A stretch of 64,000 bases of DNA from Christensenella sp. UBA7862 (lineage in GTDB: Bacteria > Bacillota > Clostridia > Christensenellales > UBA1242): contig DLSM01000004.1 in assembly GCA_002500135.1 (NCBI GenBank), positions 25,796-89,795 of the forward strand. The letters run 5' to 3'. The notes under the pieces are model-generated. The model was given only the letters and a program-made list of their open reading frames with translations, had not been told where the DNA came from and ran no database searches. This document shows positions 47,953 to 55,489 of this stretch, in pieces. The translations under genes and the position numbers were made by a program. Position 1 is the stretch's first letter. Each line of letters starts with the position of its first letter.

Positions 47953-50900
47953 TTAATCACTTTTCTTTACATTACCAATAAATTGTTTTAAAAATTTTGC
48001 TGCAAGATTTCTATCTAACATTTCGTGTATTTTTTGATTCTCATAACTTCTCAAACAATTATAACATGATGGGTTACAATTACAACTTTCCATATTATTT
48101 AATGCAGATTTCATAATTTTATATAATACCATTCCATCTTCAGTAACCAATCTTCTTGAGTGTCCTGCACCGCCCGGCACAGCATCATAAATTATTATTG
48201 AATAATTTAATTTTCCCTGTATAATTTTTAAAGAAAGACAGGCTTTTATATCTTTTCTTTCAATATTCATACCTTTTGAAATTGCATATAGTATTGCATA
48301 CATGGTCGAAATCATAGTGTTGTAATCAGACGTATTGCAATCAAAACTTATTTTTACGACATCGGTATTAAATGTGTGATGAAGTGAATATCGATACAAT
48401 TCTTGACATTCGCATTTAAATTGACCATAAGAACTTTCGTGCTTGTTCGTCGTATAAATCTTATGCTTTTTATGTTTTTTATCTTTATTTGCTTCTTTAT
48501 CATCTACAATGTTTTCATCTTCTGCATATGCAAAACCACATCTAGGACAAACATAAAAATTATTTGAGGATTTAACCATCAAAGAATCATTGGTAGTGGA
48601 CTCTATTGTAACTTTAATATCATTATATAAGAAAGAGCGTTTTTCTATTGTTTTTGATTCAGTATTACCTATATAATAATCATCAGATTTATAATTTTTT
48701 TCTTGTCTAGATAATGGGACCTCTTTTGCCTCTCTTTCTGTCATAAATCCGGAACGTGGTTCAATGCTTTCATTGTAATCACGGGGAAAAAGCAAATTTC
48801 CACAAGAAGAACATTTAACCCCTGTTTCTGGGATAGGAACAACACTATAATTAACACACTGACATTCTGGATTATTGCAAATTCCAACATATGCGGTATA
48901 CCATTCTTTATGATTATTGCCAATATTTGTTTTCTTTATATATCGACTGGTATATAGTTTTCCATCTGCAACAATCTCTGATGACGGGGCATATTCTGCA
49001 ATCGCTATAGACAAATCCCTACTAAGCCTTAATTTATTTAAATTTCCAGCGGTTGTATTTTGCTCTAATTCCACTGTGTCTACAGGAAACCCATATCTAG
49101 GCAAAATATTACCTCTTGCTAAGAAATCAATAAGTTTATTATTTTTGTAATTTTTTAATTTTCTTTCACATCTTGTTGCTTTTTCCAAATCATCTTTTTT
49201 GTATTTTTTTATGGACTCTTCAAATTCTTTTATATTATTCTCATATTCTCGTAAAAGTAGTGTAAAGCTTCCCTCTTCACCAATAAAAGAATCTAGCCAT
49301 TGAAAGGTTTGTAAACCAAGTCTGTTGTGTAATCCATTTACATCTGGGATAGACCGTTTCAACATATCGGTAAGTCTATTAGGTTTGCTTTTTAACCAGT
49401 CAATAAATAATTGATAATTTTTCTCATTTATAAATTTATCCGAATTGTTGTGATCATACAAATCGGGATGATCGGCAAAAAACATACTTAAAGAAATTGC
49501 ATATATATGCCTTCTTACAATCTTTTCATTATCAACCTTGAATAATGGTGGTAATATTATACCACTAATCATTTTGTTTGGTTCTCTAAAAAATGACAAA
49601 TCATGGGAACTTAATTTAGCAAATGTTAGTGCATAAGCAGCCGCATTCACACTTCTTCCTGCTCTACCTGCTCTTTGTGCATAATTGGATGGCAAAGGTG
49701 GAACATCTCTTAAAAATACCGTTTCAAGGTCACCTACATCGACACCCATTTCAAAAGTTGTTGAACATGATAAAGCATTAATCTCTTTTTTAATAAACTC
49801 CTCTTGATATGTAGCACTTTCTTTTTTGCTTAATTGTGCTGTATGTTCTTTAATGAACAAAGGAGACATTTTATCGCTAAAATAAAGTTTAGCAAAGTGA
49901 TTATCTTCTCTCAGTTTTTGAGGCTCTATCGCTATCACTTGTTCTTCACATTTAACCGTAGTACATTTACCAACCATATTATAAGGGGAAACTTTACCGC
50001 ATTTTGTACACTTATACCATTTTATTGTAGGATCATTTGCTATCTTAACTTGTAAATATTTCGCAGGTAATACGTAGGTACCATCCTTATTCTTATCAAC
50101 CATACAATACTCATTACCACATTCAGGTTTAGTTAAATAATCGAAAAACTGATCCAAAAACTCAATTGCACAATTATTATCTATTTTCAAAAAATGAGTT
50201 ACATAATACAGTTTATTGGTTCTAAAGTAATCATTTTCTTTTCCGTTCTTATGTTTTGGCATCCAAGACGAAATGGTAGTTTTAGGAGAAACTTGTTCTT
50301 CTTTAGAAATAAACCTTTGAGATGGAGTATAAAATATATACTCTCTATCATTATCATCAATATCGGTATCAGAATCTGTACAGACTGCACCTGTTTTAAT
50401 TATTTCAAAAATAAGTAAATTTAACAAATTTTTAACACAATCATTATCTGTATCGTATTTTTGCGATATAGCATTTATAATTTCATCATTAATACCAAGA
50501 TAGGTAAATTGTAATACGCCTAATGACATTAAAGATGTAGATGAATTGAAACGAGCTAATTCGTTTAACATTGCCACCCAAGCATTTTTATTGCTAACTG
50601 CAGTTAAATTACTTATATCGCTATTAGATTGAGCAAAACTTCTTTTGTTAGAAAAATAAGCAGTTAATTTTTTAACGAAATCAGATATAGTAAATGAATT
50701 TTCAATTATTAAGTTTGAATTTTCTTTAATTATTTGACAGATTCCACGACGACGTAAAAATTCATTATAACTTTTGCTCAAATAACATGCAAACTTAGCA
50801 GCTTCTTGTCTACTATCAGAAAATGCCAAAAATTGTCTTCCCGTCTTTTTTGCTTTCTTTTTATTAGCAAGGACTGCGTTGGTAAATATATTAGTAGATG

Positions 50901-55489: not shown

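Follow-up and report, generated by a model that had tools for sequence, protein, structure and literature searches.

The YprA/MrfA family of superfamily 2 (SF2) helicases, whose documented activity is 3'→5' DNA unwinding, includes the DNA-repair helicase MrfA, the DrmA/DrmB helicase of the DISARM system and DruE, the large helicase of the Druantia systems. The C-terminal nuclease-type domain of DruE consists of two PLD domains in Druantia type III-A and of an inactivated Vsr domain in types I and II. In type III systems the druE gene follows the gene of a large partner, DruH, which is composed of an N-terminal helical domain, six immunoglobulin (Ig)-like domains and, at its C-terminus, a helical domain that touches the N-terminal one; in E. 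coli DruH the C-terminal helical domain and the domain Ig5 form a pocket for single-stranded DNA (ssDNA) and ATP (bioRxiv 10.64898/2026.05.12.722862). The present analysis concerns a gene pair of this layout in a stretch of 64,000 nucleotides (nt) from Christensenella sp. UBA7862 (assembly GCA_002500135.1, contig DLSM01000004.1, positions 25,796-89,795 of the forward strand), which is referred to as the window. The two genes are likely to make up an autonomous defence cassette that spreads horizontally and belongs to the Druantia type III kind, its form being specific to Bacillota and combining a compact DruE with a DruH-shaped partner from a different sequence family.

A type III-like or III-B branch has been described whose DruE mostly lacks the nuclease domain (Bell et al. 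2025, bioRxiv 10.1101/2025.09.15.676423). An example is MSMEG_1253/1254 of M. smegmatis, where a DruH of 1132 amino acids (aa) and a naturally nuclease-less DruE of 1667 aa form an experimentally validated, protective pair (PMC13316683). E. coli DruE cut after its MZB domain (DruE 1-1723) also still protects E. coli (Himpich et al., bioRxiv 10.64898/2026.05.13.724758). The pair in the window shares with type III-B an operon of two genes, the first for a large protein without annotation and the second, which overlaps it, for DruE, as well as the defence-island setting. In both, DruE measures about 1600-1670 aa and contains DEAD, Helicase_C and MZB domains but ends without a nuclease domain. It differs in having a partner of 912 aa rather than about 1130 aa, undetectable as DruH by any profile, and in its host, which belongs to Bacillota and not to Actinomycetota; it is set beside type III-B by description. 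The features of the operon are as follows.

52751..55489, reverse strand: partner gene, 912 aa, GTG start (list of open reading frames, ORFs)
47953..52758, reverse strand: gene of a compact DruE-family (YprA/MrfA-type) SF2 helicase, 1601 aa, GTG start (ORF list, PADLOC, Pfam)
55490..55708, reverse strand: intergenic leader 5' of the partner gene, 219 nt, with the Shine-Dalgarno sequence and a promoter-like site at 55559-55532 (consensus matches only)
47845..47869, reverse strand: terminator-like hairpin and T-run, 84 nt past the helicase stop, marking the island edge (sequence inspection; similarity to a related metagenome-assembled genome, MAG, stops at 47807)

Both genes start with GTG behind good Shine-Dalgarno sequences, AAAGGAGAAAAATA-GTG in the 912-aa gene and GGAGGTGAAAA-GTG in the helicase gene, as had been stated in an earlier note on this DNA, and the 8-nt overlap given there was found at 52751-52758, where the helicase start and the partner stop share GTGTTTAA. 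It recurs in homologous loci, of which L001, L003, L036, L037 and L039 show either an equal 8-nt overlap or a gap of 2-4 nt. Homologues of both proteins can be aligned from residue 1, which supports both chosen start codons. Dozens of loci preserve the two genes as a pair, which is far beyond chance.

The helicase contains the following domains, all of which are consistent with the complete set of SF2 motifs and the C-terminal signature of the DUF1998/MrfA type that had been claimed for it.

51832..52473, reverse strand: RecA1/DEAD domain, aa 96-309, with Walker A motif GTGSGKT (K123) and DEAH at 262-265 (Pfam PF00270, 3.5e-25; motifs from the translation)
49651..49863, reverse strand: RecA2/Helicase_C core, aa 966-1036, with motif VI QRAGRAGR (Pfam PF00271, 1.4e-10; motif from the translation)
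48052..48300, reverse strand: MZB (DUF1998) zinc-binding domain, aa 1487-1569 (Pfam PF09369, 4.1e-12)

In the translation the SF2 motifs I, II and VI are intact, the MZB domain carries the four-cysteine zinc motif CNCNPSCYNC, several further CxxC zinc modules are legible, and the terminal motif reads CNCNPSCYNCLRSYENQKIHEMLDR. Profile searches of the kind proposed in the earlier note gave matches to the three Pfam families listed above and to the DruE models of PADLOC, namely DruE1 (E=4e-173 over residues 215-1593) and DruE3 (4e-172), with DruE2 and DruE4 also matching, whereas the PADLOC DrmA matches are weak and limited to the core (1e-13). By these matches the 1601-aa protein belongs to the DruE family of YprA/MrfA-type SF2 helicases. 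The DruE1 and DruE3 scores are about equal, at approximately 575 bits, which is what E. coli DruE attains on the DruE1 model (574 bits); because this equals a cross-subtype score, the helicase is given no subtype assignment. The closest solved structure by sequence in the PDB is 9tu7 (E 9e-79), a 2108-aa helicase named simply 'DEAD/DEAH box helicase' in its entry. Its length, and an entry number adjacent to that of the DruH entry 9tud, are the grounds on which it is taken here for E. coli DruE.

Alignment of the helicase with E. coli DruE (2104 aa) gives two blocks, residues 94-659 and 1072-1712, at 23-27% identity, while about 300 central aa are unalignable. The second block reaches as far as residue 1712 of 2104, the point from which the PLD domains, two in number, follow in E. 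coli DruE, and the helicase in the window terminates 32 aa past MZB with no C-terminal nuclease domain; it is therefore a compact, nuclease-less DruE. Thus the architecture, described in the earlier note as elaborate, is instead a compact one, the PLD nuclease domains present in type III-A being absent. The missing domain does not exclude membership in the DruE family, since such an absence is accepted in the literature for type III-B. In comparison with type III-A (E. coli and P. aeruginosa; PDB 9TUD is DruH), the gene order and coupling are the same, as are the RecA core, zinc modules, OB and MZB of the helicase and, according to the structure prediction, the order of an alpha-helical head and an Ig-like array in the partner. 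The differences are that the helicase in the window has no PLD domains, ending at the equivalent of E. coli residue ~1712-1723, and that neither YjiT_N nor YjiT_2nd is found in the partner, which is also without the C-terminal helical domain.

The extent of the DruE match also bears on the idea that the pair is not an immune system at all, and that a housekeeping DNA-repair helicase of the MrfA/YprA type is encoded here with an accessory protein. The repair helicase MrfA does fall in the YprA family, with the same SF2 core and MZB zinc domain, and the addAB genes lie about 2.6 kb from the pair. However, the MrfA/YprA structure (PDB 6ZNP, E 6e-16) matches the helicase in the RecA1 core only, against some 575 bits for DruE, and the helicase is more than twice as long as MrfA, with zinc-module insertions of the DruE type and without an MrfB exonuclease partner. 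The pair has a patchy distribution and is situated in a mobile low-GC island, at the edge of which, before addAB, the similarity to the related MAG ends; its other loci adjoin mobile elements and restriction-modification (R-M) systems. A repair function is accordingly regarded as highly improbable.

The partner is the part of the pair that none of the models searched recognises. The earlier note had proposed a Druantia III-like pair; this holds for the DruE helicase and the operon layout. The partner is undetected as DruH, and the remark that the 912-aa protein could not be recognised as DruH by eye is borne out by PADLOC, Pfam, NCBIfam and hhalign. The protein has zero matches in Pfam, in PADLOC (up to E=10) and in NCBIfam, where the STY4851/ECs_5259 model, which represents DruH, does not match it. 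Sequence searches of the PDB with the single partner sequence and with the family profile returned nothing, although DruH (9tud) was in the set. None of the ten PADLOC DruH3 models matches any of 45 members of the partner family at E<=0.1, whereas E. coli DruH, taken as a positive control from an IncY plasmid with a Zorya II-Druantia III-ARMADA II island, matches all ten with E from 0 to 1e-20. In the precomputed Pfam annotation 39 of 40 clusters of DruH homologues carry PF27205, nearly all of them together with PF27201; YjiT_N and YjiT_2nd are thus carried by almost every DruH homologue, including those in other phyla and at identities as low as 17%, while neither occurs anywhere in the partner family, for which this field is empty, or in the family of a Clostridium butyricum partner described below. 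Two distant DruH homologues that were checked are each paired with a DruE of about 2090 aa.

Profile-profile comparison led to the same result. With hhalign, the DruH profile gave a probability of 0.2% against the partner family of the window and 0.1% against the C. butyricum family. Probabilities across the comparisons of partner and DruH were 0.2-2.7%, and a full-length comparison gave E=0.12. As a control, the DruH profile finds a partner protein from a plasmid of Chryseobacterium balustinum at 99.4% probability (E 3.5e-21). This is a 995-aa 'hypothetical' protein encoded upstream of a 1958-aa DruE (L045:1716-10616), which on the strength of that match is a clear DruH homologue, left unnamed in RefSeq rather than placed in the STY4851/ECs_5259 family; annotation of DruH thus has gaps even among genuine homologues. 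The C. butyricum partner family was considered as a bridge to DruH and rejected, being homologous to the family of the window (99.9%) but giving nothing to DruH. Comparison of the N-terminal parts alone reached at best P=0.017 with 177 sequences, which is not significant. The path of that alignment, in a register first seen by eye, is constant and colinear (FVGNYiFt, LAKEW and KKYYATxCSHAFAP against PLYAYRCtd, YAAEW and YLxTLACEGGLP), and it strengthens with profile depth from a score of 15 (P 0.32) to a score of 23 (P 0.017). The glutamate that this register equates with the conserved E75 of DruH is not conserved in the partner family. The colinear register is a hint of very remote homology and is not counted as evidence.

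These comparisons bear on whether the locus is an ordinary Druantia type III (III-B) system in which the 912-aa protein is a true DruH orthologue that has diverged beyond detection. Such divergence is unlikely, given that the DruH3 models which find E. coli DruH find none of the 45 family members, that YjiT_N and YjiT_2nd persist in DruH homologues to 17% identity and are missing from both partner families, that hhalign does not exceed 2.7% for a protein about 200 aa shorter than DruH and without its C-terminal helical domain, and that the same DruH profile does reach an unannotated partner in Bacteroidota. What speaks for an orthologue is the position in the operon, the translational coupling and the predicted plan of a head and an Ig array, all shared with DruH, together with the single colinear register of the N-terminal path, which improves as profiles deepen, and the usage of the literature, which applies the name DruH to III-A and III-B partners alike. 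The alternative offered in the earlier note, a distinct and uncharacterised variant, is the better of its two options, because tools that find DruH homologues at 17% identity miss this partner; the novelty does not extend to the helicase, the compact kind of which has already been described as type III-B.

The likeness to DruH on which the preferred reading draws, that of a Druantia type III cassette with a partner from another sequence family, is one of shape. The AlphaFold2 (AF2) model of the full partner, built from 45 sequences, has a predicted local distance difference test score (pLDDT) of 88.9 and is divided into two regions.

54752..55489, reverse strand: N-terminal all-alpha domain of the partner, aa 1-246 (AF2 of the domain alone, pLDDT 90, predicted template modelling score 0.88)
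52754..54712, reverse strand: beta-rich region of the partner, aa 260-912, with about 6-7 beta-sandwich domains resembling Ig or fibronectin type III (FN3) domains (AF2 secondary structure; Foldseek)

The predicted beta-sandwich domains comprise about 650 residues and extend to the C-terminus. A Foldseek search of the full model against the PDB, the structure search that had been proposed for this protein, returned only generic Ig/FN3 arrays (contactin, NCAM2, PTP-sigma) with E down to 3e-7 and low template modelling scores. For DruH, Foldseek is likewise reported to give Ig/FN3 arrays (Loeff et al., bioRxiv 10.64898/2026.05.13.724313). The DruH entry 9TUD was not returned by the search with the full model or by that with the N-terminal domain; the library holds entries up to 2026-04-08 and probably does not include it. 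As modelled, the partner has the general plan of DruH, an alpha-helical head followed by an Ig-like array. Among 170 sequences, residues K67, W69, T123, H127, S134, D158 and Y189 are conserved in the head domain and S352, R358, E368 and Y379 in the first beta domains, and the conserved polar residues form two clusters, one in the head domain (K67, H127, D158) and one in the first beta domains (S352, R358, E368).

Extracellular Ig/FN3 receptor ectodomains, S-layer proteins and adhesins are the kinds of protein matched by Foldseek, as might be the case if the 912-aa protein were an unrelated Ig-repeat surface or adhesin-like protein placed upstream of the helicase by chance. However, no signal peptide, transmembrane segment or sorting motif was seen in the partner translation, suggesting that the protein is cytoplasmic, and the 8-nt overlap of stop and start, the synteny with a YprA helicase kept across sampled members of the superfamily and the fusion of some members to cytoplasmic DNA-binding domains and UvrD-type helicases make a chance neighbour barely credible.

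The close partner family comprises 48 clusters, all from uncultured gut Bacillota, and an exhaustive profile search at E<=1e-3 yielded 604 representative clusters, so that the superfamily numbers at least 604 clusters when clustered at 50% identity. It includes a family of about 1070 aa, with a C. butyricum megaplasmid gene as its type, which is homologous to the partner of the window over 824 columns (99.9% probability, E 9e-36). On this megaplasmid, pNPD4_2, from a cultured and sequenced strain, a 1069-aa partner and a compact 1559-aa DruE-like helicase overlap by 4 nt (L034:2783-10668); the helicase, located downstream of the partner, is 33% identical to that of the window, and the partner is not recognised as DruH by PADLOC. 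A tblastn search of the 912-aa partner against 72,556 plasmids gave no match, and a literature search on DruE in Firmicutes yielded nothing relevant.

Conservation of the gene neighbourhood, the examination of which had also been suggested in the earlier note, is pronounced, with partner homologues co-occurring with DruE-like helicases in 27 close and 5 distant loci. Of the close family, 27 loci continue far enough 3' of the partner to show the next gene, and in every one this is a DruE-like helicase immediately after it, both genes being essentially full-length in 22 of the 27; the same order was found in five of the six distant members sampled. In the exceptions, L012, L013 and L035, the helicase beside the partner is likewise of the YprA family but is split into DrmA and DrmB. 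Since every locus examined shows a YprA-family helicase, fused or split, the partner family appears to be tied to it. Across the same 22 loci the helicase is 65-74% identical (median 66.5) and the partner 34-45% (median 38), which is the contrast one would predict if a sensor works together with a conserved motor.

Extended members of the superfamily carry further domains. Among 40 N-terminally extended representatives, helix-hairpin-helix (HhH) domains of the RNA polymerase (RNAP) alpha-CTD type were found in 23, HHH_5 in four, HU in three, and EVE and DUF3427 in one each; the RNAP alpha-CTD HhH domains occur in tandem in extended distant members. Eight other representatives have a C-terminal extension of 640-694 aa, which contains a UvrD/GajB-like helicase in both of the two that were scanned. 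Examples of added domains among distant members are P0095, P0128, P0183, P0076, P0137 and P0166 (alignment A4). Judged by their families, all of the fusion domains identified are DNA-binding or DNA-processing.

In the three exceptional loci the partner is part of a five-component operon. Two of them, in Erysipelotrichaceae MAGs (L013:51-10725 and L012), have the order UvrD-like, DrmA-like (1106 aa), DrmB-like MZB protein (610 aa), NERD and superfamily 1 helicase (522 aa), with the partner last, while in the third (L035:2046-13625) a partner-UvrD fusion comes first and is followed by the DrmA-like, DrmB-like and NERD-helicase genes. The operon contains neither a methyltransferase nor DrmC, and looks like an unnamed DISARM-like system sharing an accessory module with the Druantia-like pair. 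The pair in the window has in common with DISARM, the core of which is DrmA and DrmB, a YprA-family helicase with DUF1998, and relatives of its partner stand beside split DrmA/DrmB-like genes (L013, L035). In contrast to DISARM, a single ORF encodes the helicase together with MZB, none of DrmC, DrmD/E and DrmMI/II is present in the operon, and the adjacent methyltransferase is a component of a type IIS R-M system that can be separated from the pair.

It is possible, at somewhat less than an even chance, that the 912-aa family is a superfamily not described before, extending across Bacillota, whose members are portable modules for sensing DNA, built of an alpha head and an Ig-like array. The modules would serve fused DruE-like helicases, split DrmA/DrmB helicases with a NERD-type helicase, or fused UvrD/GajB-like helicases. 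The superfamily would have diversified by adding RNAP alpha-CTD HhH, HU, EVE and DUF3427 readers, would be convergent with DruH and not descended from it, and would define an unnamed five-component DISARM-like system of UvrD, DrmA, DrmB, NERD-helicase and partner.

By analogy with the characterised Druantia type III systems the module in the window is probably anti-phage. The mechanism proposed for it, including the order of events, is drawn by analogy with the E. coli, P. aeruginosa and M. smegmatis systems. The fast-evolving partner would act as a DNA-directed sensor or adaptor, recognising exposed ssDNA, DNA ends or replication intermediates of the invader, and would recruit or license the helicase, which would load on ssDNA and unwind in the 3'→5' direction with ATP. 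The unwinding could block circularisation or replication of the phage genome. Any degradation of DNA would come from the partner or from host nucleases, because the helicase is without a nuclease. The DNA-binding fusions in the family are an indirect hint of a DNA-directed role of the partner.

Several points weigh against the assignment to Druantia-like defence. The partner is negative in all of the DruH sequence tests, and the transfer of a DruH role therefore goes by position and shape. As to shape, the AF2 model lacks the C-terminal helical domain that makes up half of the ssDNA/ATP pocket in E. coli DruH, and for the N-terminal domain Foldseek found no structural neighbour of known function in the PDB library (best E 0.23). 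The role to be transferred is itself disputed in 2026 preprints, where DruH is variously taken to bind ssDNA in a manner inhibited or gated by ATP, to be a 3'-5' exonuclease, or to interact indirectly; these preprints are also split on the relevance of the PLD nuclease domains of DruE. In the literature searched, no experiment on phage protection by the partner family was found.

The genomic setting is consistent with horizontal mobility. The GC content, 35-40% before, is 27-31% from position 48 kb or so onwards, and the low-GC island continues past the window end. A related contig, L005, from a MAG labelled Christensenella sp. UBA6345, is 98% identical over window positions 47807-55501 and divergent beyond 47807, which places the island edge just past the terminator. 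Upstream of the pair lies the R-M system that the earlier note had described beside it in an AT-rich island, and which was confirmed as one of the AlwI type.

55709..59685, reverse strand: type IIS-like R-M system, neighbouring context (PADLOC and Pfam)
55709-57529, reverse strand: AlwI-family endonuclease, 606 aa (PADLOC, Pfam)
57538-59685, reverse strand: fused double D12-class (Dam-class) N6-adenine methyltransferase, 715 aa (PADLOC, Pfam)

The adjacency is nevertheless incidental. L005 keeps the pair without the R-M genes, so the pair is independent of the R-M system, which was rejected as part of the module and entered the island as an insertion of its own. Also located within the island is an ORF of 293 aa (61783-62664, forward strand) that has a rolling-circle Rep domain (REP_ORF2-G2P, 2.5e-9), which suggests that an integrated element resembling a plasmid or phage gave rise to the island or lies in it. 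In other loci the pair adjoins R-M systems of the type I or HpaII kind, serine recombinases, TnpV and ParB, settings typical of defence cargo on mobile elements.

Other genes of the window lie outside the island. The addB (1076 aa) and addA (1197 aa) genes (38524-45344, reverse strand) overlap by 4 nt and end about 2.6 kb from the island; a functional link to the pair was rejected for this reason and the proximity judged coincidental, although host end-processing enzymes could matter to a helicase without a nuclease of its own. A Zn-peptidase gene and a 1394-aa ORF (12543-16727, reverse strand) are likewise outside the island, as are ORFs of 802 aa (36002-38410, reverse strand) and 330 aa (45900-46892, forward strand), neither of which has a Pfam match.

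The helicase kind and the compact two-gene layout are already known. What appears to be new is the partner superfamily, unseen by current defence annotation, its links to helicases of the DruE and DrmA/B types, and its DNA-reader fusions. The locus is not a categorically new system, and its value lies in comparative leverage on the disputed role of DruH: with a helicase that has no nuclease and a partner that has no pocket domain, it is a natural experiment on that role and on the need for a DruE nuclease. If the pair defends, the features common to it and the canonical system would mark the essentials, and the C. butyricum pair is a convenient source for experiments. In that case PADLOC, and probably similar tools based on hidden Markov models, may under-count Druantia-like immunity in gut Firmicutes, because PADLOC has no model that recognises the partner. 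Through its presence in DrmA/DrmB operons the partner family connects Druantia-like with DISARM-like systems by a common accessory module, beyond the helicase alone.

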